From assembly GCA_964187785.1 (NCBI GenBank), contig OZ076409.1, positions 54,748,001 to 54,812,000 on the forward strand: DNA of 64,000 nucleotides, given 5' to 3'. Positions 1 to 52,868 of the stretch are shown here, piece by piece. The stretch comes from Amphiscolops sp. MND2022 (Eukaryota). Made by a program: the position numbers and the translations under genes. The notes beneath the pieces are model-generated. The model searched no databases, was not told the DNA's origin, and saw only the letters and a program-made list of their open reading frames with translations. The stretch's first letter is position 1. Each line of letters starts with the position of its first letter.

Positions 1-1959
1 TCCTGTTGGGTATTCTTTCTCTTCTGACTTCGGGTTGTAGACATTTCGATGAAGAAAAGATTTTTGAATGAGTTGAATTTCTTTTCAAAGTTTCAACGGA
101 GTTGAATTAGGATAGAGTTGAGACAAGCAAGTTTAAGCAATTGATTATCGCAAAAGGCAAAAGACTGAGTCCCTTAATCATCAAATTTCACTGTATTTAT
201 ACCCTCCCAGCATCATTTGATCACGGCTATAATCCCTAATTTTCCTCGAACAATTAGTCATTTCCTGTATTTTCGATGAAAAAATCGCGAAGTTCCCAAA
301 TTTGCGTCAACATTTCGTCAATTTTTAAGACACGACAATTTCAAGCTAGCATTAGTCATCAAACATGATCATATCATTTCATCCCGGCGTCCTTTTGCTT
401 CCTCCCAACCAGGAAGTAGATATTACTTCAGTCTGTCAAACCGGAAATGTTTCCCTGTTTTCCTGCTTTGGTTCGCGGGAAATTGACGCTGAGATGACGC
501 TGACGTGAACAACAAATACCTGATTTTGAATTTCAGCATGAACGAAAATATGACTAACTCTCAAATTATGGTTACTTAAACGATGCTAGGAACGATATTT
601 TTATGAATTTGGACTCTTTCTTTTCGTTAGGGACGAAATTAAGATCACTGTACCAAATATATTCATCATCAACAAACTTGACATGTCGCGACAAGTACGA
701 CAAGCTCTACAAAATTAACAACAACATTTGTTAAGTAGCAACGGCAACGCAACGCATTTAATGAACAGCAACGATGAATTAATATGGAAAATATAATCAC
801 TATCATGTGAGTACAAAATTGTGAAGTATATGATAATACACTTCCAGTACAAAATATACTTTAGTTGAAAGTATAAACTGTGATTTTCTGATTATTTTAC
901 TATGAATTCCCATAGTGGAAAAATGGCTTATGTAAGGGAAATTCCATGTTGTTGAAAAAATGCAAGACTATTAGTTAACGTGGATTTGAACTATCCTATA
1001 TGTGTCAAATCTACTTTAAGTTGGAACCTTAAGTTATAAGAATACCGCCTCTTTATTTATTTTACGAACTGAAATAGCCTGCATTCGTTTTCTTTTAGCA
1101 TAATAACAACCTTAGTGCGATGAAACCTTAACTGATCTTGTAAATTCATCTATTTTGTTCAATCTCATAAACTTGTCAAAGTCATGTTGACGAGTTTTCT
1201 TGGCAGAATTTAAGCTTCATAAACTTGTCAACGTCATGTTGACGAGTATTTTAGAAATGAGTCTCTCGCTAGCTGCCGGAGCAGTGACGTCACAGTGGCG
1301 GTAAATTGGAATGATTTCTAGCAATGCTATTAGTATAGGCGGATAATTGGAATGATTTTCTGGTACGCTTATGCGAGGCAGTGACGTCAATTGGTATACC
1401 TTCAACTTGTCTGCTTCTTACTGACGACAAATATACATGTATTCTTATTTCTTTCGCCGCTTTGTTTACTCAGCGCAGTATTGACGTCCTAAACCACTTT
1501 AATTGCTGTTCAAAGAGTAATTAAGCTGCCTTTCTAAGAAAAGGCTTAGATCATTCGGTGTGCCATCTCAGTGTGTTTTCTATTTTAGATCTGATTGATG
1601 TTCTTTTGGGAGATGATTTTGACTACGTTTTCATTTAGATTAGACTATGATTTCCTTGTTTTTAAAACGTATTTTAATTTAGTTTTCAGGTGGCGAATGT
1701 TGCTATTTTGACGTGGCGAGTACGTCTTACCGGAAATGCGTGTAATCATTCTGGCTCATTTCATTCTCTGTTTTCATTTTCATTCAAAGTTTGCGCAACG
1801 TAGATGTATTTTTACATTTCTAGTCGCAGTTTATTTCAAAGTTAAAGTTTTAGAGTTACCAGTTAAAATAAGATTTTGGGAATCTCAGATTGCCTCCATG
1901 TCCTCTCCCGATCTTCAATCGTCGGCAACCACAAGCCAGACCGGGAGCGGGCTGTGACA
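1..1959 (-). repeat. 3' LTR of element A (partial)
   Basis: Matches the 5' LTR up to ...gggctgtgaca (1959 vs 15126), where the flanks diverge. Scattered substitutions and a ~20-bp indel near 805/13955. Confidence 0.95.
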
Positions 1960-2562
1960 GGGCCGCTCTTGTGAGAAGATTGACGCTGCCCGGGGCTCTG
2001 AGTTGTGAGGCGATAGTCGGGGTAGCGGTGACCGTCTGTATTCTCTTTTCCAAGTCGTTTAAAGGGCTTGCTTGTAAGAAATTTATCTTCTTTGGCGTTC
2101 CCGGCGGGGTGTTGAAGTAAGAAGAAGCGTTTTCCTGGTGCACCTTTCCGAGATATTCTGCTACCTTACTGCTCGTTATCGACTCTTTATCGTTTGCCGA
2201 GGTTTCAACAACGAATATGTCAGATGACAAGCTTTCATCTGGGCTCTCTGGGGAGTCGCTATTGCTATTTCTTCGGGACTTTCCGAATGCGGATACTGAC
2301 CCGATTCCACTGTTTCGAAACTCGTGTAGGGTTCACTGAAATTCATTCTTTTGCATTCAGATTCCAGGGAGTCTTGAGAAAGGTCGAGAAATTCTTCTTC
2401 ATCTGCAGTAGCTTCCGCTGACGAGTTCAGTATTTCGACAATTATTCTGGGGTACTCTTTGTTGGCCCTAGGTAACGGGGTAGAAGCTCTTGTGTTCTCG
2501 CCTTCCTCTTCGCTTGACGATGAAATGTCGATCAACTCGTACAGATCTAGTAGATTATTCAT
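1856..2562 (-). pseudogene. Sense accessory ORF of element A (acidic/Ser-rich, SIM-like motifs), frameshifted, ends inside the 3' LTR
   Basis: ORFs 2176-2562 and 1856-2230 overlap. Same position as the intact B ORF 30278-31063, and it crosses the LTR edge at the same (L/V)SQ codon phase. Confidence 0.65.
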
Positions 2563-3024
2563 CTTCTTTGTGAGATTTCTTTCCTTTTGCAGTTGTCGTT
2601 CGTATTTAATTGTTCCACAATGAGTTCAGGAATAGTTAGGATTCAGGAGAATTTTGGGATAAATCCCTCCATCCTGATTGGCTGTTCAATCTTTTTAATC
2701 CTTTTAATCCTTAGGTGTTGACGTTATGTCGACTTTGCGTTTTTATTGGCTGTAATTCGAAATAATTTACTTAGCCAAATTTGTCAACGTTATGCTGACG
2801 TCATTTTCGTTAGCTTAGCTACCTTTTGATTTTGTCACCGTTTTGATGACGTCATTTTAGGATATAGGATTAATTTCTTAACCCTGATAACCTTTTTGTC
2901 GACGTTATGCCGATGTCAATTTCGTTGGTGATTAGCCAACTTTCATTTTTGTCACCGTTATTGTGACGTCAGTTTTGATTGTTGTTTTCATGTCCTCTCT
3001 TTTTCAGATTTCTGCTACTTTGAG
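2563..3024. promoter_or_regulatory. Putative internal divergent promoter of element A
   Basis: Lies between head-to-head ORFs. Contains ATTGG (CCAAT) boxes near 2677 and 2745, TGACGTCA at 2796/2847/2964, and five GTCA-N9-TGAC-like units. Confidence 0.5.
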
Positions 3025-6000
3025 ATGGATCAGGAGCCTCCTCCGTTCCGTCGTGACACCGGCGCTCAGAGCGGCAATGAAACTCAATTTGTGTTCTCTG
3101 AGGGAGACATCTACCAGAGTGATGGCGATATTGTTCGTCGGCAGGCAACAGGTGGGTTTGTTATTCCCCGTACCATTAAGCTTTTGTGAATAATACTACT
3201 CTCAGATAGGCCTTTTCTGTTTCGTAATTCCACAGCTTGGATTTTCTGACGCGTCAATACTGGAATGTTATTTCAGTTTCTGGGCCATCAATTCCGTCCC
3301 CTGCTGGTGGTGTTCTCGCTTCTACTCTGGAAACTTCTCTCCCAGGTGATCCTACTGGGGTTTCTGTTGGTGGAGTTGGTTCTGTCATTAGCGACTCTGT
3401 TGCTTGTCAGTCTGATGGTTTGGACATGACTTTGGGAGCTCTCGCGCAGCAGATTCGTTCTTCCGTAGCTTCAGAGACTCGCGAAGGTGAGGTTCTGTCC
3501 CCCCTCTTCAAGGAAGTAGCAAGCAAATAGAAACGACGCCAGGAGATGATGTTGCTGCAAAGACGTCTTCTCCACGGTTCAGTGATTTCTTGCCTGGTTT
3601 CAGTCAGTCATTCGGCAGTCGAGTCAGTTCTCATGTTTCCAAACGTGGTGAGTGAGTTGGCTGTTGGTTTTGGTTGTTGATTTATGTAAATTAGTTTCCC
3701 ATAGTCAGTTTGATTGTGCTACTTAATATTGCTTGCTATTGTGTATTAGCTTTACTGGCCGTTCCCGGAAAGGAAAAATCTCTTGGGTGGAGTGGAAAGT
3801 TGCTACAACTTCGTCCATATACGTCACAAGGCGGTGGTAGGCATGTTCAGTTCGATGTGCGCAGTAGTGGAGATGAAGAAGTCGCTGAACCTACTACTAG
3901 TAAAACTCTATCACTGAGTGCAGGGCGGCGACCGGTTGTCGAGTCAGACACTGAAAGACATGCCATGGATCCATTCGTAGCTAGTAAGTATGGCATGATG
4001 TGTATTCGTACAGTGTTGCTTCTCTTCCTTTGTGGTGATATCGTTTCCTCCTCCTTTTGTTTGTTTTTCTTTCACTTTTCTGATAGTTGTTAGCTGTATG
4101 GAGGTTCTATGTTGTATTGTTTATTTATTGTCGTCTTGTATTGAAGTTGCGTTTTGTCCATAATAGGATTCGAGGAGTTGATACAAAGAATGGAATCGAC
4201 TTTGGAGGGGGCCACTCGAGGGTGAAAACGAGCTTTCAGTCCGCGTAATCGGTTGCGACGCGACATGGTTTCGGGGCACCCCGTGTTTGAGCTCTTCGTC
4301 AGTGGATCAAGTACTGGATCTGATAAGTTGTTCCATTGTATGATATGTCAGCGAGACGTATCGATGGAGTCACGAGGCCCTGCTGAAATTGCTCGCAACT
4401 TCTTCGGTAAACGGCACTATGTTTTAGATGTAACCTATCGTGTGCAGAACGATATGCCGGTGTTGAACAGATTAATGATCCGATGGTGTTGACTGAGGCT
4501 CAACTGGCGGAGTATCGTGATCGGCCTCGCAAAGGAAAAAGTGAGGGGTTCAGCTTCCCTGAAGACCTGTTGCCAGCATGCACTCAAGCTAATTCGAGTG
4601 TCCCATTGATGACGATGATCAATTGTCTGGTTGAGCTGCTGCGGTCGGGTGGAAGCTATACTCTCTTGCGGCGTCTTTGGGGGAGTTTCCGAGCGACTTT
4701 GGGCCGTGAGAATCCTCTCTACAGTTTGAATTGGAGCCTTGCTGAGTCTTTGGTGAGTCTTAATTTTCCTGTTCTATTTTTCGCTTTTAATTTGTATATG
4801 CTGTTTTGTGCTGGTGTCTACTAGAAGTCATACAGAGTATCTTTCGGCATTTGTGGGATGCAATTTTTGGTTTGTGTTTTAGTCATTAATTTGCCGTGCA
4901 CTTTTCCCTCGGGCATTGCGGTTGCTCATTTCGCGGATTTCTGCGTTTCGTGAGTACAGCGTGTTCTTTGTCGAGGATGAGAGGACTCATAAGTGTTTCG
5001 TACAGACGTGGGACGAGCACTGTTGGATGAGTGTCTGTGTCTGGGTGGAGCCCTCTGGACAACATGCGCCGAAAGCGAAATTGGCTGACCTGTCTCGTGT
5101 CGTTGACAGTACGACTTCTTGCCAGTTGCCTCTTGCTTGTCATGGGGGCAGTCCCACGCTCTTACGTGTCTTGAGCGATAGTCGAGTGGACAGTCGTAGC
5201 TTTGTCGTGTTCCGGGAATTCAGCGAGGATGTCTTTTTGCATTGTTTCCGTCTGGCTTATCAGGAGGTGTTTGGTGGTTTGGAAGTGACCACCATGATTG
5301 ACTTCCTGGTTTTGCGTTTGCGTGGTGCCCTACAAGAGTCGTGGTTCGCCGATTTGCCAGTACTGCGTCGGAGTGTGATTGCTGGACGAGTGTTCTTCCC
5401 TGATCTGTGTGATGTCGTGAAAGATTTGCTTTCTGTGTGGCTCTAGTGCAGAAATTTATCAGGGACAGTGCGCCTCGTCATATCAAAACTGATGCTGGCC
5501 GGGTAAGTTATTTTCCATTGTTCGTAGTAGCAATGTATTAGGCTATTTAGTTGTCTTTCTCGTGTTGACTGTGTTCTTCTCTCCTTTTTTTGTTTAGTGT
5601 TGATAACGTTGGTGGGAATATTTGATTTTTGCAGATGCGAGGCACTGACTGGGCTGTGTACTCTGATGGTGTGGGTGAGCTACGATTGGGTCTTCTTCTA
5701 CACATCCTGGAGCTTTGTAAGTTGTTGTGCCTTCGCTGTGTTATTGGATGGATTTTGTCGGGTTGGGATTTGGGTATGTTGACTTCATACATATGGTGGA
5801 AATGTTTTATGTTTAGATCGCTGTTCCTTCAAGAAGCTGCGGTCCAAACGCGTGGACTACTGTTTCCATTTCTACATGGAAGTGTGCCAGTTTGTCTACT
5901 GCCTGTTTTCGCGTACCCGTAAGATCAGTTCTCTCCCAGGCTTGCACAGTTGGGAGGAGTATATGGATGCGGAGAAGGTGGACGAGTTCAATTCTATTTC

Positions 6001-6765
6001 TCCTGACGATTTTCTGCGGAACCATTCATTCGGGTCGACTTTACATGGTCGTAATGACAGGAGTGGACGAACTTTCCGCGAGCAGTGTCGAAAATTCATG
6101 GACCGGCTGGTGGACGCTATTCTGGGTCAGCAACCTGTGACTGGGGAATTCTCTCAAGGACTTTATGCGTTTTGTCCAGAATTAGTATTAGAAGGAGATG
6201 ACCGTCACATGTTGGGTCTATTCAGCAAGTTGGTTCGGGTCCTAGAGTCAAGTGGTTGTTTGTCATCTTCCGAGTCGAGGACGGCTGTCGAGGAGTATTC
6301 TACCTTTGTTGTGGATGCGCGGAGGCGGCATCAGGATTGTGGGACCAGTGCAGAGGACATTGTTGATGTTCAGCAATACTTGCTGTCAGATTACAGTTTC
6401 TTGTCCCGCAAGAGTTTAGTTCGCGTCTTCAAGTTATGTTGTTTGGTAGCGCTGAAACCTCGCGTGGATTATCCTTCCGTGGATCTTGGTCTGATAAACT
6501 GTCAAGTGTCCGAGTGGGTGATAGCCACCTGTATTAGTGGGGTGCAAAGTTGTGTTTCTGCTTCTGATTTTAAAATGAGCTCCTTTTTTTTACCAAGTTT
6601 ACAATGAAAGAAGTTCGTGATGCAATTGATGCTTCGCAGTCTTTTATGACAAGTGCTGGCTACAATCCCTGGACTGACATTTGCAGCGAAGGTCAGGCTG
6701 CTTCTGTGAAGCGTTATTCTGTATTAATTGCTGATTTCTTTTGTATCTTTGTACTATGGCAGTGA
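3025..6765 (+). pseudogene. Antisense multi-exon gene of element A: BED-finger, inactivated hAT-transposase-like protein
   Basis: Predicted exons 3025-3151, 3277-3647, 3750-3983, 4167-4752, 4883-5502, 5635-5716, 5817-6765, with GT..AG introns joining in phase. Contains CMICQRD...H finger and 'GLYAFCPE', 'LVRVFKLCCL', 'YNPW', which align with the B/C genes. A few stops and frameshifts. Confidence 0.75.
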
Positions 6766-6895: not shown

Positions 6896-9800
6896 TTAGT
6901 AAGTTGTAGTTATAGCGTCAAGTCGTCTGAAGTCAGGATTTGCGTTTGGCTTAGGATTAGGTCTCAGGTTGTACTTTGCTATTTTTCTCGGGTTATATCC
7001 GATAGTTGTAGGCGGTGATCTTGGGGGAATAGGTGGACTTTCAATAGGTGGGGGGCGTCGTATGTATGGGTTATCTGTAGTGAGGTTTGAAAAATCCGGT
7101 GACGGTGGTGCCACGTCATGCGTGTCTTCATTTTGATTGTCTGATATTTGTTGTGTGATTGTGTCATCATCTGTGTTCACCACCTCTTGTGTGACTATTT
7201 GCTGATTGTTTTCTGCACTTCTTGTCACTTCGTGTTCGTCTATTTGTTTGCCAAAATCCATTTCTCACGATACGGCGTACCATTCATTGTGCGACACTTT
7301 GACATTTGGATCAGGAAGGTAGTCATTTGTTCGTACTGTGACGTCAGGTAGTCGTTGTTCTGGCACGTAAGGACGTATTCTGATCCTATGTAACGTTTGT
7401 GTGTACCGTGTGCCAAGTCTTCGTATTGTATAGTTGTTGTTGGATAGTATTTTTATCACAATATACGGTCCTGTCCAGATGCAATCTTGGAACGCAAACT
7501 TTGTCGACTGGTTGTCGGCTTTCGGGTTGAGGATGTAGCAGTAGTCGTTTACTTTGAGCGGAGCTGCCGACGCTTTGCGGTCGTAATATTTTTTGTATTT
7601 GAGGTAAGACAGCATGATGTTGTCTTTCGCTGTCGCTCGCACGTCGTCAATTTGTTTTTGTAGCTGCTCTGCTATGTCCGAGTTGGGCGTAGTTTTCCAC
7701 TTTGGCTTGATGCCCAATTTTAAGTCAAGGACATTGTAGGGTATACGTCCGTGGAATACTGTAGATGGTTCGCAGCCTAGTGTTTCGTGATATGTTGTAT
7801 TGTAATTCATGACTGCAATTTGGACATATTTGTGCCACATTGAACGTCTTTCACCCGTCGATGTTTTTAGTGCAGTCGTGATTGAGGCGTGTGTCCTTTC
7901 CAAAATTCCGATTGTTTGTGCATGTTTTGTGGACGCATGGTTGATTTGGATTTCAAGAGTTTGCGTTATTTCTGCGACGACTTCTGATCTGAATTGTGAG
8001 CCTTTGTCTGACAAAATTAAAGTTGGCAGATATGCATGTCTGGTCATGACGTCGACAATGCATCGTCCAATTGTTTTGCTGTGGCGTTCTGTGTTGGGTA
8101 GGCGAATAGGTAGCGTGAAAATACATCAATCATCGTAACGATGTTTTGGTATCCTGCAGAGTTGGGTAGATTCGGTAATATGTCGATCTCGAGAATGTCT
8201 TCCGGGCCCAGGACGTGTTCCGTGGTGTTGATCATCTTTGGTCTGATTTGACTGTTGCTGATTCGCTTGTATTTGATGCAGTCTTCACATTGCATTACCC
8301 ACTGTCTGATTCTTTTTGCTAGGCCAGGGTAGTAATACTTTGATCGGCATTCTTGGATCATTTTTGTGAGCCCTGGGTGTTTTCCCATTTGTCCATGGAT
8401 TGCTTTCAGAAGTTCTGTAATCAGATGTTCGGGAATTAGTATTTGGTTGTGTGTAACTTGACCGCATTCTCCGTAGTATTTGCGCATTAGTACTCCGTCT
8501 TTGACTATGAGTCTGTTTTCGTGGAGTAGGAGGCGCTTCGCTGTCGGGTCAGTTTGTAAGAGGTGTTTGTCGTATTCTTCACAGATCAGTTTTCTTTTGA
8601 TTGCTTTGAAAACTAAATCTGAATCTTGTTCAACTCTAATGCGTGCATCTTCTTTGATTGCCCCGAAGGTGTATGATGCCTTGTTTATTGGGTTTGGGGT
8701 TGTTTCTTTTATTGACAGTTTTATTTTCGTCGTCTCCTCATCTCGTGCATTTTGTCTTGCTTGTTCTTTTTGTAGGAGGATCTCCTCTTCTGTTTCAATC
8801 GTTTCCTCTGGGAGAAAAAAGAGTTGTTCCTTATCTGCGATGTCTGTCGGTTGAAGGTTTACTTGTATTGGTTGGATCGTAATATCGTTTCGGATTTTTA
8901 GTTCAACTTTTTCTTTAGGGTTAAGGTCAATTCTCGATAAGAAATCGGCAGCAGTGTTTTGCGTCCCGGCTACATGCATGATGTGAAAATTGAACTGTAG
9001 TACATAGTCACATGCATTCCATAGTGTGGGGGGAATCGCTTTTGTTTGGAAAAACCTCGTTACTGATCTGTTGTCTGTCATTACGAGAGTTGAAAGGGTT
9101 GTTTCCCACAATATATGGCTGTATTCTAAGAACGCGTGGTAGATTGCCAGAAATTCTTTGCAATAAATTGACATCTTCAGTTGTGCCGTTGAAAAAACTT
9201 TTGATCCAAATGCTACAGGCGCAAAAGTTTTCTTTTCGGAATTGAGTTTTTTGTCGTTTTCTTCTTCGATCATTAACGCATATCCTGAGGCGCGAAAGCT
9301 AGCATCCGTTATTAGGACGTATTGTCGTCCTGTGATTGGTTGTTTGAGGGCTAGTCCACAAGCTTCCGCTAGCGCTGCGTTGATCGCTTTGTAGTGGTCT
9401 AACAATTCTTCTGTGATTTTGATTTGTTTGTCAGCTTTCAGTAGTTCGTAGAAACCGAGTAGCTTTTCTGACAACCGCGGAATATAGTTGCGGTAGTAGT
9501 TGACAAAGCCTATGTATCTCTGTATTTGTTTCTTTGATTTCGGGAATCGTACATTTGCTGGATTTCTGGATTTTGTGGTCTTGAGGGGCGATTCCTTGTG
9601 GGGTAATTGTTCTTCCCAGGAATTCGACCTCGGTCACTCCAAAGTGGCATTTGTCGATGGATAGTTTGGGTCCTGCTTGTCTGATGCATTCGAAGACAGC
9701 TCGAATGTTCCGTATCAGTTGCGTCACGGAGTTTGCAGCTATTCCAATGTCGTCTACATATTGCGCGCACTGGTCAGCCTTGATTACCTTTTCTAAGTAT

Positions 9801-11815
9801 TCTCTCATGAAACTAGAGAATGCCGACAAAGCTCTGCTCAGTCCTTGTGCCAGTCGTTTGTAGGCGAACGTCCTGCTTGCGAAGTTGAAGGCTAGCATTT
9901 CAATTGATCTCTGGTCTGCCATTTGTAGAAAGTGGTATGCTTGGGAGCAATCTAATTTACAGAACAGCTTTTTCCCAGCTAGGTGTTGAGCTGCGTCTGA
10001 CAGGGTGCTGACTGGGTGTTTTTTGTTGATATAGTCGTCGGATATCAGGGCGTTGATTTTTCGTAGGTCGACGAGTAGACGTAGTTTACCATTTGGTTTA
10101 CGTTGTGCAAAAATCGGACTGGCATACTTTGAAAATGGTCGTTATTATGCCATACCTATGCATGAGTGCCAGTTCGACTGTTAGGTCTTCTTTGAGGTTA
10201 ATCGGTACTGGTAGGCTCTGTGTATATATGGGGCGTTCGTCTTTTGGCGTCAGTTTCACTTTGAAGCTATTATTGATGCCAATGTCGAGTCTGTGACGCG
10301 TAAAGATGTCGTTGTATTCAACTATCGTTTGTTCTAATTGTTTCTTGTCATTGCCTTCAATCTGTGATCCTTCCCATTTGAACATGTCGAGGAACTCTTT
10401 CCTTGATTCTGGATCTTTGGTGGGGTCGAGTTGTTCTTTCCTGATGAGTTCTCTAATTTCTTTCAAAATTCGCCTTTGTAACGGCGTGTGTTCATCCTCA
10501 TTCCCTGGATTTTCGGGTGTTGGGAACCAGAGGTTTTCGTCATTTTGTTCGTTGTTTGTGGATTTCATGAGCTCATTCACATACATGTATGTGTCATCTG
10601 GGTCTTGTAGGGTGGTCAACGTTGCGACATCTACAGGTCGTATTTGTTTGGTATCCTCTGGCCTCAGGATTTGCAGTTCTGCCAATTTGGTATGGTTTTT
10701 TATGGTGTGCGAGAAATCTGTCAAGTTGGCTATTCGTAATTTGATTCGTTTGTTGTGAGCTGTGGCTAGTGCTGGTGCGACGATGATGGTAGCTGTTTCA
10801 TCAAACTGTGGTAGCGGTTGTACTGCTCCTGTAATGTCGATTGCATTGGTGGTTATAACTATCGCATTTACGGTTGTTGTTTGTTGTGGAGGCAATGTCT
10901 GGTTCCCTTCAGTCATGATTTGAAGCGGTTTGGGGTTACAGTTTTTCTTTTCATCTGTCATGGCTAATATCATATCGACATGGGGGAAGGTGGTGGTCCC
11001 ATTAGCTGTATCTATCACTGCTTGGTGGTTTCTCATGAAGTTCAGTCCAATTATGGGGAATGACGTCTTTGATAGTATGACAAAGGTGTCAGTGAACGTG
11101 TATGTTCCGATATTGAATTGGATATCGGCTGTGGCGATAGGTTGTTCCAGTTGTGCGTTTGCACATTCAATTTTGAAAGGAGGCTGTGGGTACTCCTTTA
11201 TGACACAATTATCGCTGTTCATTTTAATGGCATTGTAATCAGACCATAACATGGCATTGATGAACGCTCCTGAGTCGACGAGGCCGTCCATTGTTAGTTC
11301 TCCAAATTCCAGTGGCAAGTAAAGCATTCGTCTTCTGTTCTTGAGGACTATTGTTGAGTGGAGAGGTATGTAGGTATCTCCGTCTCTTTCGGTTATGTAC
11401 TCTTTGATTGAGTTGAGCGCGGTGGGGAAGTCGTTATGGAAGATAGGTATCCTGGTGTTTTTGTGGGTATCTTCCTCAGTCGTTTGTGACGGGAGGTTGT
11501 CGTCGGGGGCGTTTTCATTGTTATTTGTTTGTATTGTAACAGAGAGCCTCTTGGTATTGGTGGTTGGCTGATATAATGTATTTGTGTGATTTTGATTATT
11601 GCTTCTGTAATCTTGATCTTGCGGGAATGTTGTTTCCTGTCCTTTTTCTGGGGGTGGTCTCTTTATGGAGGCGATGGCTTGATGTCTCAGCCAATCTTCT
11701 GTTGGAGTACCAGTGCATTCCGCTGTTGTGTCGGTTGTGTATATGGTGGGGGGATCTTCTGGTGAATACGCCCTCGCGTCTACTGTTTCCCCAAAGCGCA
11801 GGCGCGGCGTAATTA
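6896..11815 (-). pseudogene. pol: pol of element A (PR-RT-RNaseH-IN), frameshifted
   Basis: LVDSGA protease; QYVDDIG RT; LITDASF/TDNRS RNase H; H..H..CEDC zinc finger plus EIDIL/SDKG/LERTH integrase core. Split over several ORFs. Confidence 0.93.
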
Positions 11816-13191
11816 GTTTTTTTGATTCATTTGCTGGTTGGTTTGCTGGTTGTGGAACAGAGGTGTCCATTTTACGTTCTTGTGTGTTGTGACGCTTAGG
11901 TCGTGGGTCGTTGGCTGCATTGGCTTCGTTCCAACAATCTTCTGTTTTGTGGGGTTTGCCGCAAGTGTCGCATTTGGGTGGTTTGCCTGCACTGTGGTTG
12001 CTCGGCCCGTTGTTTTTGCGGGTTTGCATCCATTTGTCCCTCTTCATTTTACGGCATTCAGCTTTGTAATGTCCAAATTTATTACAGTAGAAGCAGTACC
12101 CTTTTTTAGTGGTCTGGGTGGTGGTTTCCGCTGGTTTGGGTTCAATTTTTGGTTGGGCGGGTTTCTCTCTCTAGGTGGAGTACTTTGTTGTTGTAAGGTT
12201 TGTCTTCGAGGTATGCGCGGTTTAGTATCTTCGTGACATGGTCCGGCACTTTGGCGTATATTGGCTTGTCTATGAACTGCTGCGCCTCTGATCCGAAGGC
12301 CTCTTTTGCAGTTTTCTGGAGTACATCCAGGAATTCGTGGAGTTTTTGTGTCGAGGGGTCGAATTTTAGTGCGTCCCATTCGCATCTAGCCTTTGCCATT
12401 GACAGATAGTCTCCAAATCGTCGTTTGAATATCGTCATAATCTCGTCCAGTGAGTCTTTCTTCGAGTCTTCAATGTTGCAAAAGGCTTGTAAGGCGTCTC
12501 CCCGGAGTAGGGAGTGAAAGTAGTTTATCTTTTGTATTTCTGTGAGGTGCGGGTACATTTTGATATTGTTCCTGAAGAGATCTTCAGAGAGCTCGAATTT
12601 TTCAGATTTCCCGTCAAAAGTTGGGAGTGACGCCGTTGGAGCTTTTGGCATGGGTAGCGTCGTGGTGCTATTTTTGTCTGGGGCGAACAAAGTTCGCGCT
12701 GCTGCTGGGCGTTCTTTTGACGGAGGTTGGCTTTGAGATCGAACCTTCGTTCTTTTGGGTTGATTGGTGGAGTCGTTTAAAACTCCTGTCACCATGTTAC
12801 GACTTACATCCGGGTCGTTTTGTGTTGAGCTTATTCTAACTGATCTAGTAGGGGTGTAGAAACTTCTAGTTTCGTTTTCTAACCCTTCTTCGACATTCTC
12901 TCTAATGTTCTCCCTTGTTTCAGGTCTCAGAAGTTTCATCACTTCCCTTTGGGATTCAATTAAGAGATTCTTAATCTCGGAAGTAATCTCCTCCTTCAGA
13001 GATGCTCTCAAACTTTCTAGGAGACTATTTTCAATTCTAGGGGATTTTGGTTTCGAAGGCCCCGCGGTGCTAGCGTCCTGTTCCGAAAAATAATGATTTC
13101 CTACTACTACTGGCGAAACAAAACCATCACTTACATTTTCACTATTTTCCTGTTGGGTATTCTTTCTCTTCTGACTTCCGGTTGTAAACAT
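11813..13191 (-). pseudogene. gag: gag of element A, starting inside the 5' LTR
   Basis: ORF 12142-13191 contains 'PTFDGKSEKFEL.EDLF...KINYFHSLLR', homologous to B gag, and a downstream CDTCGKPHKTEDC knuckle. Frameshifts near 12150-12050. Confidence 0.85.
12782..12794 (-). other. Primer-binding site TGGTGACAGGAGT (tRNA-Leu-like, inferred)
   Basis: Immediately follows the terminal CA of the 5' LTR. The first 12 nt are identical to the element B PBS. Confidence 0.85.
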
Positions 13192-15126
13192 TTCGATGAA
13201 GAAAAGATTTTTGAATGATTTGAATTTCTTTTCAAAGTTTCAACGGAAATGAATTAGGATAGAGTTGAGACAAGCAAGTTTAAGCAACTGATTATCGCAA
13301 AAGGCAAAAGACTGAGTCCCTTAATCGTCAAATTTCACTGTATTTATACCCTCCCAGCATCATTTGATCACGGCTATAATCCCTAATTTTCCTCGAACAA
13401 TTAGTCATTTCCTGTATTTTCGATGAAAAAATCGCGAAGTTTCCAAATTTGCGTCAACATTTCGTCAATTTTTAAGACACGACAATTTTAAGCTAGCATT
13501 AGTCATCAAACATGATCATATCATTTCATCCCGGCGTCCTTTTGCTTCCTCCCAAGCAGGAAGTAGATATTACTTCAGTCTGTCAAACCGGAAATGTTTC
13601 CCTGTTTTACTGCTTTGGTTCGCGGGAAATTGACGCTGAGATGCCGCGGACGTGAACAACAAATACCTGATTTTGAATTCCAGCATGAACGAAAATATGA
13701 CTAACTCTCAAATTATGGTTACTTAAACGATGCTAGGAACAATACTTTTATGAATTTGGACTCTATCTTTTCGTTAGGGACGAAATTAAGATCACTGTAC
13801 CAAATATATTCATCATCAACAAACTTGACATGTCGCGACAAGTACGACAAGCTCTACAAAAGTAACAGCAACATTTGTTAAGTAGCAACGGCAACGCAAC
13901 GCATTTAATGAACAGCAACAATGAATTAATATGGTAAATATAATCACTATCATGAGCATAGCGTCCAATATCATAGAGTACAAAAATATGAAGTATATGA
14001 AAATACATTTCCAGTACAAAATATACTTTTGTTGAAAGTATAAACTGTGACTTTCTGATTAATTTACTATGAACTCCCATAGTGGAAAAATGGCTCATGT
14101 AAGGGAAATTCCATGTTGTTGAAAAAATGCAAGTCTATTAGTTAACGTGGATTTGAACTATCCTATATGTGTCAAATCTACTTTAAGTTGAAACCTTAAG
14201 TTAACAGAATACCGCCTCTTTATTTATTTTACGAACTGAAATAGCCTGCATTAGTTTTCTTTTAGCATAATAATAACCTTAGTGCGATGAAACCTTAACT
14301 GATCTTGTAAATTCATCTATTTTGTTCAATCTCATAAACTTGTCAACGTCATGTTGACGAGTTTTCTTGGCAGAAATTAAGCTTCATAAACTTGTCAACG
14401 TCATGTTGACGAGTATTTTAGAAATGAGTCTGTCGCTAGCTGCCGGAGCAGTGACGTCACAGTGGCGGTAAATTGGAATGATTTCTAGCAATGCTATTAG
14501 TATAGGCGGATAATTGGAATGATTTTATGGTACGCTTATGCGAGACAGTGACGTCAATTGGTATACCTTCAACTTGTCTGCGTCTTACTGACGACAAATA
14601 TACATGTTTTCTTATTTCTTTCGCCGCTTTGTTTACTCAGCGCAGTATTGACGTCTTAAACCACTTTAATTGCTGTTCAAAGAGTAATTAAGCTGCCTTT
14701 CTAAGAAAAGGCTTAGATCATTCGGTGTGCCATCCCAGTGTGTTTTATATTTTAGATCTGATTGATGTTCTTTTGGGAGATGATTTTGACTACGTTTTCC
14801 TTTAGATTAGACTATGATTTCCTTGTTTTTAGAACGTATTTTAACTTAGTTTTCAGGTGGCGAATGTTGCTATTTTGACGTGGCGAGTACGTCTTACCGG
14901 AAATGCGTGAAATCATTTTGGCTCATTTCATTCTCTGTTTTCATTTTCATTCAAAGTTTGCGCAACGTAGATGTATTTTTACATTTCTAGTCACAATTTA
15001 TTTCAAAGTTAAAGTTTTAGAGTTACCAGTTAAAATAAGATTTTGGGAATCTCAGATTGCCTCCATGTCCTCTCCCGATCTTCAATCGTCGGCAACCACA
15101 AGCCAGACCGGGAGCGGGCTGTGACA
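12795..15126 (-). repeat. 5' LTR of element A (2332 bp)
   Basis: TGTCAC...GTAACA termini, adjacent PBS, and a TATAAATA candidate at 13348-13341. Confidence 0.92.
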
Positions 15127-16565: not shown

Positions 16566-18503
16566 TGTCGCAGGCTGCCGCCTGTGATGGTACAAGGATC
16601 ACTACTACCGCAGAAGGACAAGAAATAGCGGCCGGAACTCTACCAATATATTAGAGGTAAACATTAAAAACACAAACTTTGCTATTATTTTTTAGTCTAC
16701 AAGTTGTACCTGTTATCGTTGCGAATTTTACACTTAGTATATAGTTTGTTGATATTAGTCCGTTAATGCCAACATTTGAAAATTCAGATGCTGTATTGAT
16801 AATTGTAAGAGCTAGAAGTGCAGTACGAACACGCTGTTATAGCAATAGATAGGCAGCTAGAAAGCGTAAAGGAAACGAGTTCAAGTGAACGTAACTCCAG
16901 TTCCGGAGACGTCACTTGAGCTCAACCTGTTAGCCAATCATATTCATCCATTTGAGTAATAGTAGTGCTGTATTTAATTAATGGCCGGTTTAGGCCATAT
17001 GCCGGAATTTCACCTTTATCTATTGGCGCTTTAGTCAAACGGCCGGTTCCGGCCTTAATGTTCAGATGAAAGAATGTTAATGCGAGCACTGTTGTGTTTC
17101 GTTTAATAGTAGTCTAATCACGTTGCTGTACTAATTAAACGTTCATCTTAGCTAATTGGCGCTTTATTTTATCCATTCCAATATTAGGCCGAATAAGGCC
17201 ATTTGCCTGACTTCTATCCTCCGTTGCTGTGACCAATTGGACAGTGGCCGGTTGAGGCCCCTTTTCAATACTATTATTCAGATGCTAATTACAATCATTT
17301 AGTGTACTTTATATGTCATGTATAATTACAAGTACGTCGTAAAGACTCATGTAACTCTTGAAATTAATTGGTGTAATCAATACCAATGTATGATGTTGCT
17401 ACCAATATTAGTCCAAAGGACATGTCTGGCCATATTTACTAGTTGACACGTGGAATCTGTGTGCATATTATATAAAGGAAAATATGTGCTGTTACATGTA
17501 ACATTGCTGTATACAAGTTGATCTAGCCTGCTAACGGGGCACGTGCCGACACGAGATTGTCAGCATTCCTGAAATATTAGCGGCGTAAACATTTTAATCG
17601 ATGCTATTTGATGTACCGTGTGCCTTTTGAATACTTGTTATAGTTGTCAAAACAGGAATTTGATCGGCCGCGTGACCTTACGATCACGATTCGGCGGCAC
17701 TTTGATGCTTGCATAGTCGAGTTAAGTCAGGTGCTTTCGGAATGTGTTTGTAACATTTTTTGGCTGTTTGCATCATGTTTATCCCGCCCAAGGAAGTATA
17801 TATAGGGGCAACTTCCTTTGGGTGGACACAATTTTGTTTTGCTCCTGATATTCAGTTGATAACACTTTCTCGTTAACAACCATCAATCCTGTTTTCCGGT
17901 TTTAATAATTTAACTATTCAACCCGGTTTAGTCTTAATGCCTACTACTAGAAAACAAAAGAAGGCAAGGAAATCTAGAGGATTAGAGATTCTCTCTGATA
18001 TTGAAAACCTTGACATAATGTTAGGTGAAAATCACTTCAAGGACATGAGGAGAGACGGAAGCCTCGATGGAACTTCCATTAAAGGCAGGAAAGTGTTACA
18101 AGCAATAACTTAGAAAATGAGGAAATGAATCTCCATTCTGATCACAGGAATCCCGAAACTGGGACTAGTGCCGGTTACGACCGAACCACAGCGAGTATAG
18201 ATTCTCAAGCTGAGATCAATAAGTTATCGTGTCAACTAAACTCTAGAATATCTAGGGAGATGGATGAGATGATGAACAGCGTTAGTTCTCAAATCCAGAG
18301 AGCCATAAGTGATGCCATCAATAACCAAGTTTTGCCACAAATTCAAAACGTTATTATGGCCGGTTCAGGACAAGAGACTAGAAGGGGATGGGAGAGATCC
18401 GACGAGAGACCGGAAAGTTATTCCGAAGTTCAGTATAACGCGAAAACTAGAACTACCTTCAATAATGAACACGGTGATAGAATACAGCGTAATGTTCATG
18501 ACA
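16566..18503 (+). repeat. 5' LTR of element B (1938 bp)
   Basis: TGTCGC...ATGACA termini; matches 30975-32911; TATA candidate at 17797-17804. Confidence 0.96.
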
Positions 18504-18515
18504 TGGTGACAGGAG
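18504..18515 (+). other. Primer-binding site TGGTGACAGGAG
   Basis: Directly follows the LTR-terminal CA and is translated within gag as (M)VTG. Confidence 0.88.
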
Positions 18516-19622
18516 ACAACGAATCTCCAAATCAAGTTCCTGAGTTTCTCACAGCACGAATCTCATCCAGAAATCATCTCGACAGGTCCTTCGAGGACAT
18601 CAACCTCGACACGACGATCCCAGCATAAGAGAGAATCGCTACGGCTGCTGACTCCGACCCCATTACCCGACTGGCAGACGTCTTGACTACAATGCAAAAT
18701 AGACCGACAGCCCAACAACTCACCATACGCCCAGTCAACTCAAATACCATGACATTCGACGGCAAAAGTGAGAAATTCGAGCTGTTCGAAGACCTATTTC
18801 ACACTATGATCAAGATGCAGCCAGAAATGACTGAGCAAATGAAGATCAATCACTTCCACTCTTTATTGAGGAAGAATGCTCTCCAGACGTTCAGAAATAT
18901 CAGCTCAAGCAACCGACAAACTCTAGAGGACGTATTAGTCATCTTTAGACGGAAATACGTCAAGCCCGAGTCACAGGCGACTGCCAAACATAAATGGCAC
19001 CGTCTAGTCTTTGATCCCAATACGATGAAACTGCCTGATTTTCTCGAAGAATTGAACCAGGGAGCCAAGAAGGCGTTTGGCGATCATGCACAGAAAATGA
19101 TTGACAGCTTGCTCTACGCAAAGCTGCCACCTAAGTTGAAACGATCTGTCAACATGGCCAGATTAGAAAATGGCTCATATGATGAAATTGTTGCTCATTT
19201 TTGGAGAGAGAGTTGGAACTCAATGCCCTTGTGGAATCAGATGACCTACCAATGGCCACAATGACCTCCTCATCTACAAAACCTAAAACTCCTCTGTCCA
19301 CAGGGCAACTGTCCGATATCACTTGCAATTATTGCAAGGAAAAGGGCCACATGGTCAAGGACTGCGAAAAACTGAAAAAGAAAAAAGAAAAAGATGCCCA
19401 ACAAGGCAAGTCGACACAGAAGAAAACATATCCGGAGTGTGGCACTTGTGGGAAAAAGAACCACCCGGAGGAGAGATGTTGGCAAGGTGCTGGTGCACAT
19501 CTTAAACCCAAACGCACTAGACCTGATGACTCAACTGAAAAAAAGCCCAATCCAAAGGCTCAGAAACCTCAGACCAAACCGACATCATCGAGTTCCCAAT
19601 CCTCATATCCTAATGATGAGTC

Positions 19623-19632
19623 AAAAAACTAA
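19623..19632 (+). other. Putative -1 ribosomal frameshift site A AAA AAC followed by the gag stop
   Basis: Canonical X XXY YYZ heptamer at the gag/pol junction. The same AAAAAAC-TAG occurs in element C (~51098-51107, minus). Confidence 0.75.
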
Positions 19633-22600
19633 CTTCGCCACGACTCCAATATAACGAATTAATATCTGTCCGACAATACATCAGATCGGACCCTCCAACG
19701 ATACAATCCTTCCACCAATACAATCAGCAATTGATGGGCTATCCCTCTGTTGTCTGGCAGCAGCAGATGGAAAAAGCTACCATCATCACCTACAATAACA
19801 CCCATTTATTCCAGAAACCAATTCCTGTTTGGGACCCTGATTACACCACTACCTTCACCACCCGCTTCAGGCACATTCCCCTAATCGATGATTACAACCC
19901 AACATACATCGATCCAGACTACGGCAGAGATCCCTATTGGGACACCGAGCTTTACAACCAAGATTCACTGCAATTTCAATATGTCCTGGACGATTTTGAC
20001 TATTATAACAGAACAGTCCACGAGAACCCCCCAATTACCCATAACAAGAAAACACGAGCACTAATCGAAAACTGGCAAATGAATGATGGTACAAACCACC
20101 CAGTGTTCCCAAACCCATTGGGGACCGAGAACCCTGAAAACAGTGTTGAATCCACGCCACAATCATTATTAGATGAAAAACAATTCCAAAATGTACTCAT
20201 CACCAGAGATGGTGAACCAGACTGTATACCCCTGTCAACCAACATCAACCTCAAATGCAAGAAACGCATGCTTTAATTCCCAATGGACTTTGGGGAATTG
20301 ACCATTGATGGATTAATAGACACTGGAGCACTGTCCAGTGCAATCCCTGAAATGGACTTCCGGAAAATCCGCCTTCTATCTCCACAATCTGTTATCCGAG
20401 AAGGTCCGCCTCCGAACTTCCAAATCATGGTCGCTAATGGGCAACTGGAAACTCCTAAGAGTACCATCGAGCTCAAATTCGAAGTTGGTGACATTGAGTT
20501 CCATGAAATCTTTATAGTAATGGAACATTTGACAGGACCAATCATTGGACTAATGTTCCTTCAGAGAAATCATACAGTGCTGGACATGAGACAAGGGATA
20601 CTGAATTTCCCGTTCTTTTCAATGCAGCTCAAAACGGCTGACCATAAGTATTCAAATGTATTAGAACCAATTCTCAACCCTATTGAGATAACAATTCCAC
20701 CAAATGATAAAGTCCTAATTAGGACCAATTCCCTACTCTACCCCGAGAATGCTGTCACTGGAATTTTGCAACCGGGCGACCTTCTACACGAAGAAGGCGA
20801 CATCACATTTTGCCCAGCTTTAGTAACTCTGAATGACGGCAATATATTAATACCAGTGAACAATTTCACAGACCACCCTTATAAACTCAAAAAGGGACTT
20901 CATATTGCCAATTTCTCTGTCATGACACCAGAACAGATGAAGTATGTCAAATTGGTAGATCCGGCATCAACCTGGCACCTGTTGCAGAATGACCAGGAGC
21001 AAGCAGCCCATTACGTCAGCAGTCTCATCAAGACCAATAGAAACCCGCAAAACTCTGAAAATTATTGGATCCCAACTCCAGAAAATCCTGGAAATCCTGA
21101 GGAACACACACCTATACAAAAACGAATCCTACGCGAGTTACAGGCCCTACAGGACCTGGAGACACTCGATCCCACTACAAATGCAGAATCGCGTGCAAAA
21201 TTCTTAGAAAACTTTGACTGGAAAGATTCCACCCTTACTCCTGAAGAGAAGGAGAAAATTGAGGAATTGTTAGTGGAATTCCATGACATCTTTGCACGAC
21301 ACCGATTTGATATAGGCATGAATGAAGAATTCAAGGTGAAACTGACGCCTAAAGACGATTCCCCAGCCTATAGTCAAAGCCTTCCAGCTCCTATCAACTT
21401 GAAGGAGGACATCCTAGTTGAATTAGCCATGTTACATAAATATGGCATAATAACCACACTGCCATTCTCGAAATATGCAAGTCCAATATTCGCACAGAAG
21501 AAACCGAACGGGAAACTCCGACTCTTGGTTGACTTGAGAAAAATCAACAACCTCATCTCAGATGATTATATCAACAACAATCATCTCGTCAGTACACTAG
21601 TTGATGCAGCCCAACACTTGGCAGGCAAAAAACTGTTCTGTAAATTAGACTGTTCGCAGGCATACCACTGCCTACCAATGGCCGACCAACGATCAATCGA
21701 AATGTTGGCTTTCAATTTTGCCAGTCGCACATTCGCTTACCGACGCTTGGCACAAGGCCTTAGTCGGTCACTATCCGCATTCTCGAGTTTCATGAGGGAA
21801 TACCTCGACAAAGTCATTAAAGCGGATCAGTGTGCCCAGTATGTGGACGATATCGGCATCGCAGCCAATGATGTCGACCACCTCATGACGAACCTGAGAG
21901 CCACGTTCAAATGCATTCAGGAAGCAGGCCTTAAGTTGACAATGCACAAATGTCACTTCGGTGCAAAAGAAATTGTTTTCTCGGACGGACTATTACCCCA
22001 CAAGGCGTCAAACCTCAGAAACAGAACGTGCAAAACTTTCTGGAAAAGACCAAATTCCCGAAGTCGAAAAAGGCTTTACAGCGCTATTTGGGATTCCTAA
22101 ACTATTACAGGAATTATGTCCCAAGACTCTCCGAACGCCTTGCTCCATTCTACAAGATGCTCAAAAGTGACGAAAAGGTCCTAGTATCGAAAGAATTAGT
22201 CCAACAATTCGAAGAAATCAATAGAGCACTAGACAAATGTTGCGACCTGGCCCTACAACAACCCATTCCGAACAAACAAATAGCACTAATGACTGATGCA
22301 AGTTTTGGTGCAGCCGGGTACGCGGTCCTAATTGAAGACGACCCAAGTCAGAAATTTACATCACTCAGAAAATCGTATGCACCGGTCGCATATGGATCAA
22401 AAATTTTCACCCCAGCACAGATCAAGATGTCAATTTATGCCAAGGAATTCCTTGCAATTTATTTTGCATTCAAAGAATTCGGACATATCTTCTGGGGTGC
22501 GCCGAAACCGGTCATCATCCTTACGGACAACAAAGCCGTCACGAGATTTTTCCAAACGAAAATAATACCCCAGCCCTGTGGAACGCGTGTGATTATTTCA

Positions 22601-24836
22601 TTCAGTTCAATTTTGTCATAGCACACATCCCAGGGGCACAAAATACAGCCGCCGACTATTTGTCCCGATTGGAAGCAGATCCAAAGGACAAATTGGTGAT
22701 GAAAATTCGTGAAGATGTACAAACACTACCAATCGAAATCAACGTCCAATCCGCAGGTGTGACGCAAGAAGAACAAATCTTCTACACCAATGACGACGAC
22801 GAGACAGAGGAACAGTATTGGGCAAGAAAAGAAGCAATTAGGAAAAATCCAACAACTGATGAGCCCACTGTTACTATACAAACTCTATCAACAACTCTGG
22901 TCAAGCAACACCCCGATATACAAGTCCGATTGAGGAGAACGAACCAGATCATTATCGAGCAATCCAAGGATGCGGTACTACAACAATTGAAAGCAAAACT
23001 GCTTCATGAAGAGTATTCAGAAAATCTACTACACCAGGATGCCCGATATAGACATTACGCAAACAATCTGGAACGAATTGTACTAAAGGACGAAATCCTG
23101 ACAAGGCAATATTTCGATGAAACAGGGAATGTTAAATACCATCAAATTCTACTCCCGCAACATTTACTCCAGGAATTGCTCCAATCCCTTCACGGGACAG
23201 CGCATAAACATCCTGGGACTTCAAAAATGCTGCAGGAAATTCGACAGAGGTATTACTACCCTAACATGGCTAAACACGTCAAAAAGTGGGTAGAAGGGTG
23301 CGAACAATGTGCCAGAGACAAAAGAGTCCCTAACGCAACGATCACACCTGAGCTGCTCAACTTGCCCGAATGGGACCTCGGACCTGAAGACGCCATGCAA
23401 ATAGACCTATTGCCGAATCTTCCCCCAAGTGATGGGTATGAAAACGTCTTAACAGCAATTGATGTATTCTCCCGATATTTGTTCGCCTATCCCCTTACGG
23501 ACACATCAGCGATCAATGTAGCAAAAGCGCTCATTGACATCATGACTAAACACTCATATCTACCAACGACTCTTATCACTGATAAAGGTACTGCATTTAC
23601 TTCTACAATTATTGGGGAGGTTACGCAGATTTTGGGCATCACACTCAAATGTGCAACGACAAAACACCCGCAGACAATTGGGAAATTGGAGCGAACCCAT
23701 GCCTCATTGAAAACAAATCTCAAAATGGCATGTGGGGAATATCGCCGACAGTGGCACAAATACTTGCCATTAGCAGTACTGAATCATAATACTAGTTATC
23801 ACGCCAGCATCGGTTGTGAACCGACGAGAGTATTCCATGGAAGAATTCCATTTAATATCTTGGATCACAAACTTGGAAATAATCCAAATGAGCAGATCAA
23901 CCCCACAACCGAATTTGCTGAAGAAATCCAAAACCGGACGAAAATCCTAATTGACAAAACGAAGCAGAACATTATGCAGTCGTATATCAAGTACAAAGAA
24001 TATTACGACCGCAAAGCAAAAGCTGCTCCATTGAAGGAGAATGATTACTGTTTCGTCTTACAGCCGAAAGCGGATCATCAGGGATCAAAAATTCCATTCC
24101 GCGATTACCGTTGGGTTGGACCATTTGTAGTCCAAAAAGTTTTGCCAAATGAAAACTATATAGTACGACGGATCAATACGAACAAAACTCAAATTTTGCA
24201 TCGCATTCGCCTTAAGAAGTTCGTCCCCAATCAACCGCTTGAAGATAATTTCCGAGAACAACGTCTGCAGCCAGACGAAGAAATTGTCATTCCGCAAGAT
24301 GACCTATACGTCATAGCGTGGGAAACAGATTTTGGCGAGCAGCTAGGTACACGAGACAACGAGCCTATTCCGACTAGCGTGCCGAATGGCGAACAACCGA
24401 ATGCGGCACAACCGAATACAAGTGACGCACACGAGAATGAAGTGGATTATGTAATCACGAGTGATGAATCAAATCTTGCCGATCGTGCGTCGCATAACCG
24501 GAATGAACGATTAATTGATGACGTCACTACAAGAAATGAAGCTAGTGAACAGTCTAGAAATGAAGAACCTGATTGGCCGAATCCGGCCATTTCCCCAAAA
24601 AGCCATGAAAAATCTTTGCCGGATACGGCAGACAGCCTACAAGACAAAGAAATTTTACCCGATGAAAATTTTAGAACTGAAATCGATGCACAAAATTCTC
24701 CGAAAAGGGGGATGATATTATCGTGCCCGAAATATCTGAAAACGATGCTAGAAATGAAAGTCTGAGCCTTAGAGGAGGGAAATATAACCTCAGACCTAAC
24801 CCTAACCCAAACTACTCAGAAGACTTCAGATACTAA
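19633..24836 (+). pseudogene. pol: pol of element B (PR-RT-RNaseH-IN), a few disruptions
   Basis: LIDTGA; QYVDDIG; MTDASF/LTDNK; LHGTAHKHPG..CEQC; QIDLL/TDKG/LERTH; C-terminus KYNLRPNPNPNYSEDFRY*. Confidence 0.95.
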
Positions 24837-25066
24837 GGATTGAATTTTCCCGGAAATGGGAGTTCTTTTCTTTTATCTTTGTTTTAAGCCCCTCTGAGAA
24901 TTTCTTTGAATAAATACTGGGGCATTTCAAAGGATCCCATACAAAAAGAGAATAAATATGGGATCAAGGCAACGAAGAAACAAAATCAAGAGCAAATGAG
25001 AAAACAAAACAATGAAAGAAATGAACAAAGTTTACAGTCTGAAAGTACATAAATACATATGTACAT

Positions 25067-29227: not shown

Positions 29228-30277
29228 TTTACCGCATTAGAAAACTTCCGGAAGTGTTTGAAAATCTGAACGAAACGTGTTATCACGCGTTTACTAATGG
29301 AAACAGGAAGCATATTGTGAACGGATTTAACCCTGATCAAGTTAGATTTAGTTCAAAAATAAAACAAACCAACCTTCAGACGAAGACATTCTGGGGCAAG
29401 ACTGATTGTAGGGAATGAGTCCTTGTTCGGCTGTAATGGATAAGGGAACTTGGCCGAGTCCGGCTGAAGAAGGAGATCCGGGATATTCCAAAGAGAAGAG
29501 CTGACGGAAGAAGAGCTGGACGTACAAGGATGAATCTCAGTTGGAAGAATACAAATAAAAGAAACAAATGTAGAGTAATCAGAAAAGGAATTGGATTGGA
29601 ATTTTAATGTAAAAGAATTGAAGAGTTGGAGTTCGTGGCTGAAGAATATTACCAGACTAATATTATGGATTATCTACATATTTATTCTGTACATGGAGTC
29701 TGCCAGCGAAGTGTACAAAGAACTTTATTATTTACAGCTTATTTAGTTAGAGGCCGGTTATGGCCGTTTACCCTGTTTTGTTTTGCCGTTTTGTCCAGTT
29801 ACCCTAGTTACCCTTAGCTAGAATTTTCGCCATCTTGAATTATTTGGATTTATTAGTTTCGCCATTTTTATTATTTAATTTTACAACTTATCGAAGCTTA
29901 ACGCTGATTGGCTGAAGTCATTTTGAAGGAATTCCGCGTCGCGTGTCGTTAATTGCTATCAGGCAAACCGTTAATTACCCACTTGAAACGGATGAAGATA
30001 ATATTTACAACTCAAGCGTCATTAACACCTCTCAGAGTGATGGTGCTGATGGGGGGTAAACACTGAGTTATCAAAGGATGCCGACTAATTATAAAATTCC
30101 ATTCAGGAATGTTTACGTCGGATCAGGGCGATTTACCGATAACTCGACCGCCAAAAACGAATTGCCGGGAAAAGGCCCGAGTCGACTAAATTTTTGAGTT
30201 GGTAAATTCATTCCACTTTGAAATCTCACTCAAGCTAGTTAACTTTCCCAATCAGCAAAATTGCCAAGAAACTCATA
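29228..30277. promoter_or_regulatory. Putative internal divergent promoter of element B
   Basis: Non-coding spacer between head-to-head ORFs, with sequence conserved in C 39495-40520. Contains ATTGG boxes and GGCC-N6-GGCC. Confidence 0.5.
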
Positions 30278-37080: not shown

Positions 37081-37085
37081 GTAGT

Positions 37086-52863: not shown

Positions 52864-52868
52864 GCATG

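Follow-up and report, generated by a model that had tools for sequence, protein, structure and literature searches.

The window, that is, the whole stretch of 64,000 nucleotides analysed here, contains three LTR retrotransposons of the Ty3/Gypsy type (A, B and C), in each of which an antisense gene lies between the 3' LTR and pol. Pfam matches in the ORFs of A and B place gag, protease, RT, RNase H and integrase in the Ty3/Gypsy order. Element A has LTRs that are 96% identical and a primer-binding site, and one of its ends lies beyond the window. The LTRs of element B are 99% identical with paired ends of the TG...CA type, and B also has a primer-binding site and a 5-bp target-site duplication. 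The main features are the following.

1 to 1959, minus strand: 3' LTR of A, running off the start of the window; 96% identical to 13148-15126; starts with TGT
1856 to 2562, minus strand: short acidic ORF of A, sense to gag-pol, frameshifted here and running into the LTR; it has counterparts in B, C and L001 (see below)
2563 to 3024, no strand: spacer of A between two divergent genes, as given by the gene layout
3025 to 6607, plus strand: antisense gene of A, several exon-like blocks, a broken copy with approximate ends, located by tblastn with the protein P0307
4277 to 4471, plus strand: BED-like zinc finger of A, with one zinc ligand absent and a frameshift just after
7265 to 13239, minus strand: gag-pol of A, frameshifted, from Pfam matches
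12795 to 15126, minus strand: 5' LTR of A, containing two motif copies (14342, 14394), with the primer-binding site next to it
16566 to 32911, plus strand: element B, complete, with its 5-bp target-site duplication
27221 to 27862: antisense finger of B
37070 to 51320, minus strand: element C, 5' end missing
About 41858 to 42075: B-type finger of C

The same layout was observed in all three elements: the exon-like blocks of the antisense gene, a spacer, and a sense ORF that is short and acidic and enters the LTR. Scans for further loci in public metagenome contigs, with the integrase as query, yielded one extra element, L001, which has this layout as well. The antisense gene keeps its position and orientation in 4/4 elements (A, B, C and L001), whose integrases are 50-87% identical. 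As the two accessory genes stand head to head, the spacer is the place where a bidirectional internal promoter is expected, and the A spacer presumably acts as one. The A copy of the antisense gene is broken (the ligand and the frameshift listed above), and any binding protein would therefore have to be supplied by other members of the family.

The start of the gag ORF lies within the LTR, at a depth of several hundred bases, and the ORF continues across the primer-binding site; consequently, each 3' LTR repeats the gag start. A, B and L001 have an identical 12-mer as their primer-binding site (12783-12797, minus strand; 18504-18515, plus strand; L001 9967-9978). The short acidic ORF lies head to head with the antisense gene in 4/4 elements (1856-2562, minus strand; 30239-31063, plus strand; 38753-39487, minus strand; L001 7518-8252), and it gave no Pfam match. 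Its hydrophobic-then-acidic stretches resemble SUMO-interacting motifs, and its product could be a second accessory protein with an effect on host silencing.

Judged from a structural model of a full-length relative, the antisense gene encodes a derivative of a hAT transposase. Relatives are abundant in public assemblies: 184 proteins were found with the B finger exon, 71 with the A finger exon, and 471 representatives with an A-type profile. One of them, P0307 (890 aa; taken as a protein sequence alone), spans the whole gene, and its tblastn matches in A are collinear (4277-5440, E 1e-30; 5873-6589, E 4e-17). With the P0307 model (mean pLDDT 70.5), Hermes accounted for 11 of the 11 Foldseek matches at E<=0.001. 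The comparison with Hermes gave a Z of 11.8 over 370 aligned residues (rmsd 6.1), the next chain among 48,161 reaching 6.4; model residues 233-698 align with Hermes. An RNase H-like core with the hAT helical insertion is present in this model of a protein homologous to the A gene. Atlas feature leads also point toward hAT families, with scores below 0.9. At the sequence level the antisense protein has no Pfam or PDB match (Pfam was run on 21 window ORFs and 12 relatives).

The N-terminal finger is of the C2H2 kind and BED-like, with the pattern CX2C-X16-HX5H, which fits the BED signature CX2CXnHX3-5(H/C) as given in the available text of PMC7471704. Atlas leads for the finger were zf-C2H2_12 and zf-BED, with scores below 0.9, and Pfam gave no BED match. 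A fold search with an A-type model of the finger alone returned nothing significant, the BED domain of ZBED1 standing at rank 2 (E 1.7). Among seven B-type proteins (21 pairs) the finger is 83-94% identical and the N-termini 34-52%, and all four zinc ligands are kept in 68 of the 82 A-type proteins scored (of 85). These alignments indicate that the finger is under constraint. In B/C-type proteins an acidic, Ser/Thr-rich and fast-evolving N-terminal region of ~480 residues precedes the finger (27863-29236, minus strand; 40760-41850, plus strand), and it is a candidate activation region.

The ends of RNase H strand 1 (alignment of 15 rows) and of strand 4 (18 rows) show no conserved Asp, these being the places of two of the three triad residues, with positions assigned from the model strands and the Hermes motif rather than residue-mapped. 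Catalysis has probably been lost in the antisense protein. The block structure suggests that the gene is spliced. Its copy in C has internal duplications (43153-45847) that are 97-99% identical.

Regarding the candidate binding sites, the initial annotation had assigned to A a spaced palindrome, GTCA-N9-TGAC, in the spacer and in each LTR, and the exact motif was found at every position that it named (1175, 1227, 2783, 2834, 2951, 14342 and 14394), with no other match in the window. The sites of the three elements, together with the CRE octamers of A, are listed here.

1175 to 1243, no strand: two motif copies (1175, 1227) in U3 of the A 3' LTR, a 52-bp tandem pair without CRE overlap
1285 to 1389, no strand: two stand-alone CRE octamers (TGACGTCA) in the A LTR (1285, 1382)
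2717 to 2967, no strand: five motif copies in the A spacer (2717, 2783, 2834, 2898, 2951), three of which end in an overlapping CRE
16983, 17041, 17187, 17246, 24575, 29752, 31392, 31450, 31596 and 31655: GGCC-N6-GGCC in B
38369 (LTR) and 39985 (spacer): GGCC-N6-GGCC in C

All seven exact copies of GTCA-N9-TGAC lie inside element A, against 1.13 +/- 1.13 matches expected in the window; at least seven were reached in 0/100 shuffles. Two of the seven are LTR duplicates, which leaves five independent copies. The variant copies proposed at 2717 and 2898 are also present, with scores inside the A family profile. The spacings in the spacer are 66, 51, 64 and 53 bp, in agreement with the ~50-65 bp that had been estimated, and the motif occurs twice per LTR as had been described, the two copies being 52 bp apart. 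This LTR pair is situated ~1 kb upstream of a TATA-like box at ~196. The motif arrays are absent from the output of Tandem Repeats Finder.

We also performed blind scans over all 4-bp inverted arms with gaps of 0-16, pure A/T arms being excluded. For A the scanned region was the spacer plus one LTR (3030 bp), and GTCA-N9-TGAC came joint first with TGACGTCA at 5 copies each; no pattern reached 5 copies in the shuffles (0/200). Treating the N9 as a free spacer was rejected, as inner positions 2-4 (C, G, T) and inner position 7 (T) are invariant in 7/7 distinct copies. The A site is better described as a 17-bp near-palindrome, with the symmetrised profile GTCAnCGTnACGnTGAC. Between the LTR and the spacer copies, the inner bases are 71% identical and the flanks 33-35%, while the far arm is 85% identical, a figure inflated by the pattern itself having picked the arms.

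A nested hAT DNA transposon would account for this arrangement if the antisense gene had been inserted with the spacer motifs as its subterminal repeats. The hAT fold agrees with this, as does the position of the cluster just upstream of the gene, where left-end repeats are expected. However, no inverted repeat of at least 11 bp with an 8-bp duplication was found around the antisense gene in any of the elements (0/4), the gene has the same position and strand in 4/4 divergent elements, the motifs occur in both LTRs, and neither of the two RNase H strands has a conserved Asp. We find this explanation of the present sites hardly credible, although a nested hAT insertion may well be the origin of the arrangement.

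Next, we turned to the other families. In the blind scan of B, GGCC-N6-GGCC came first with 5 copies, a number reached by 0/200 shuffles. B and C belong to a common finger clade and have this motif in common. GGCC pairs within 30 bp of each other are 10 bp apart in 5/5 cases in B and in 2/2 in C. The two exact sites of C are its only ones and are within chance, and three of the four LTR sites of B are not kept there. At the LTR site common to both (31392/38369), the arms are identical at 8/8 positions and the inner bases at 2/6, with U3 43% identical. L001 belongs to yet another finger clade, the third, and its motif is a third one as well, the spaced palindrome CACGT-N7-ACGTG. Its blind scan gave ACGT-N7-ACGT first, with 6 copies in U3 (at least 5 in 0/200 shuffles), and its ACGT pairs within 30 bp are 11 bp apart in 6/9 cases. 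The L001 spacer has no cognate site and contains a CRE. Thus, the statement that the motif sits at the same two locations, LTR and spacer, applied to A, B and C but failed for L001.

The three motif profiles match their own family only. The A profile gave 9 matches in the window and 0 in L001, and the B/C profile 14 and 0; the L001 profile gave 0 matches in the window and 9 in L001, three of them held-out sites after pol. The best cross-family score was 5.9 bits against at least 16.6 bits for the own family, the own-family scores being mostly in-sample. A contains 2 matches to the loose L001 pattern ACGT-N7-ACGT, and ACGT, which forms the core of host bZIP and bHLH sites, is present in the sites of both A and L001.

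The initial annotation had further suggested that the motif type follows the finger sequence and that the finger of A is the most diverged. In a finger tree of 45 rows, from which the partial finger of C was left out, the longest stem belongs to the B/C clade (1.49 versus 0.56 for the A clade), contrary to the latter suggestion. The former was borne out in that three clades (A; B and C; L001) have three exclusive motifs over 4 elements, with co-evolution inseparable from shared descent. A diagonal pattern of fingers and motifs is expected from descent too, as kin share both the finger and the LTR. By integrase, L001 is closer to B (62%) than to A (55%), whereas by pairwise finger identity it is closer to A (38%) than to B (30%), and likewise by the geometry of the motif; the finger tree groups it with B/C at weak support (81/52). 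Taken across three clades only, the family-exclusive motifs and their rigid spacings support co-variation of the protein and its site. Three pairs of finger and palindrome have been seen, and the databases contain at least five finger clades.

Could the sites be neutral, in that a palindrome arose by chance and was then copied through local tandem duplication, with families differing in their repeats? The A LTR pair is a 52-bp duplication whose flanks are 60-73% alike, and the A spacer contains a ~116-bp duplication at 79%, both of which fit such an origin. However, the cores match while the flanks are at background, not only between LTR and spacer in A (33-35%) but also among the copies of B (30-33%) and of L001 (32%), and three unrelated sequences follow a common design, in which about one helical turn separates two half-sites. 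At the B/C site 31392/38369, moreover, the arms have changed more slowly than the inner bases and the U3 around them, contrary to a neutral origin. We therefore consider this explanation highly improbable.

Host factors were the alternative raised at the outset for A, in the form of CREB/ATF binding. TGACGTCA overlaps three spacer copies of the motif, at 2796, 2847 and 2964, and none of the LTR copies, which continue with TGACGAGT; it is therefore present in 3/7 distinct copies, and the CRE is not conserved across the copies as a unit. The possibility that the CRE core alone is conserved did not hold, since the LTR copies lack it and yet agree with the spacer copies in the far arm and the inner bases far above the flanks. 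Exact CREs are enriched in A (5 in 3030 bp, compared with an expectation of about 0.9 per 64 kb), absent from the corresponding regions of B and C, and in L001 separate from the motif. Since CREs in L001 and in the A LTR stand apart from the motifs, and neither B nor C has an exact one in these regions, the CRE and the paired motif vary independently of each other. It looks like a separate host input that is superimposed on the spacer copies in A.

In its general form this alternative holds that all the sites are bound by host proteins (CREB/ATF in A, an E-box or HIF-type bHLH factor in L001, a GC-box factor in B/C) and that the antisense protein has another job. The five CREs of A, three of them overlapping the motif, and the L001 spacer with a CRE and without a cognate site are in line with it. 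So are the L001 half-sites CACGTG and TACGTG, which are known host elements. Against it, the A LTR copies have the 17-bp core in common with the spacer copies and no CRE, the CRE and the motif vary independently, and one rigid spacing per family would be needless for host factors that bind independently. On balance, we regard host-factor binding as the function of the sites to be unlikely.

A different role for the element's own protein is that it binds the sites for the sake of architecture, bridging LTR to LTR or LTR to spacer, escorting the cDNA or aiding integration. Most of the transposase body is kept, as the stretch of the model aligned with Hermes indicates, and sites of B and L001 near the pol end are away from promoters. 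Integrase, however, acts at the LTR tips, and the sites are concentrated in the middle of U3, at 0.5-1 kb upstream of the TATA-like box, and between the divergent genes in A, B and C. That Hermes assembles its complex through several BED domains on phased repeats (available text of PMC10368747) agrees with an architectural role, which we nevertheless hold to be distinctly unlikely.

The reading that we favour, and regard as probable, is that the A motif is the recognition site for a protein of A's own family, acting as a family-specific self-regulator. An ancestor of this Gypsy lineage would have acquired a hAT transposase gene, antisense between the 3' LTR and pol; cutting activity and transposon ends would then have been lost, and the BED-like finger and most of the transposase body kept. 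The finger probably reads these sites, and two fingers would bind a palindrome of fixed geometry, presumably as a dimer. Intact members of the family would supply the protein in trans, and the sites in U3 and the spacer would guide it to the promoters of its own family. Activation or chromatin opening appears the likelier outcome rather than repression: these promoters would most likely be switched on or kept open, with feedback on the protein's own gene. As fingers diverge, the sites would change along with them, so that families would not cross-regulate, and the CREs would be a separate host input laid over the spacer copies in A. Whether this extends to the whole Gypsy lineage, which would have domesticated a DNA transposase as its own transcription factor, with finger and palindrome switching together into insulated self-recognition circuits and a divergent internal promoter driving the regulator and the small acidic protein, is in our estimation evenly balanced.

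This proposed self-regulator can be compared with several known systems. With Hermes it shares the fold of the body, as modelled, and it has an N-terminal CX2C..HX5H finger whose ligand pattern fits the BED signature. According to the accessible parts of the reports, BED fingers such as that of Hermes bind quasi-palindromes cooperatively and with exact phasing (PMC10368747), and DREF/ZBED1 are hAT-derived factors that bind palindromes (PMC7471704). Unlike those of Hermes and ZBED1/DREF, the gene here is borne by a retrotransposon and not by a DNA transposon or a host locus. It also differs from Hermes in having no transposon ends, probably no conserved catalytic Asp, and no Pfam or PDB sequence match. 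The sites, at 16-17 bp with a gap, are longer than those of Hermes or DREF.

Tas of foamy viruses is comparable in the placement of its sites. It is not known to be derived from a transposase. Its two binding locations are those of the motif in A, B and C, L001 being without the spacer site. It is a sense-strand, retroviral protein, whereas the gene here is antisense and its binding and activation are predicted only. Tas (also called Bel1) is described, in the text available, as binding DNA directly at two promoters, that of the LTR and an internal one close to the 3' LTR from which its own gene is driven (PMC4929722).

A third comparison is with VANC of the Arabidopsis VANDAL elements, an element-encoded and family-specific protein whose motifs, in the accessible account, differ by family, are non-coding and multiply by tandem repeats, and for which a joint change of site and protein has been proposed (PMC5735166). 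A family-specific, non-coding motif that varies with the protein is found here as well (three clades and three motifs, a small sample). VANDALs are DNA transposons of plants, and the VANC motifs are non-palindromic arrays in the same orientation that act by DNA demethylation. A demethylation mechanism of the VANC type is unlikely here, because no depletion of CpG is seen in these repeats (observed/expected 0.9-1.2 over window positions 1-33000 and L001). This ratio suggests that the host methylates CpG in its transposons only a little.

Plant Gypsy elements of the Retand type are also reported to have antisense ORFs, together with repeats specific to the family, in the region from pol to the 3' LTR, and a DNA-binding regulatory role has been proposed; the accessible text assigns these accessory ORFs no function or target site (PMC11963269, PMC7264820). 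The antisense ORF TRP28 of these elements is described there as confined to flowering plants, with no cognate site reported, whereas the gene here is a hAT derivative on the model. Transposase_28 (PF04195) had no match in the 21 window ORFs or the 12 relatives. Finally, TnpA of Spm and the AtMu1 transposase are presented as sequence-specific activators of cognate copies, and regulators as arising by loss of catalysis, in the part available of a preprint on DNA transposons and host genes (bioRxiv 10.64898/2026.08.24.746577), in the main text of which 'retrotransposon' and 'LTR' have 0 whole-word occurrences.

LTR retrotransposons are normally taken to depend on host factors for their transcription. 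In the literature searched, in which subscription papers are thinly covered and repeat databases lie outside, neither an accessory gene of hAT origin in an LTR retrotransposon nor a cognate site for one was found. The ingredients (antisense ORFs, hAT-derived palindrome binders and transposase regulators) thus have precedents singly, and their combination is new within that literature. The accessory gene described here has a recognisable origin, a hAT transposase, and a candidate target that changes by family. If the proposed self-regulation is true, it would amount to an equivalent of VANC and Tas in a retrotransposon, made from a class II enzyme, and the separate regulation of many related families in one genome would be accounted for. 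It would extend the argument that transposases are ready-made regulators to one element class recruiting the enzyme of another. The families would also form a natural library of BED finger-site pairs, and such matched pairs would be of use in learning how DNA is read by BED fingers.

Some further observations were made on the sites and on the neighbouring repeats. Cognate sites are also present at the pol end: L001 has three shortly after its pol stop (2320-2424), and B has one in the integrase tail (24574-24589). The pol end is a possible third site location. L001 has a tandem arrangement at 8172-9966, where one LTR is common to the upstream pol and the downstream gag. The window also contains a solo LTR of a further family (52868-54093), which has a 5-bp target-site duplication and is interrupted by a 200-base gap.
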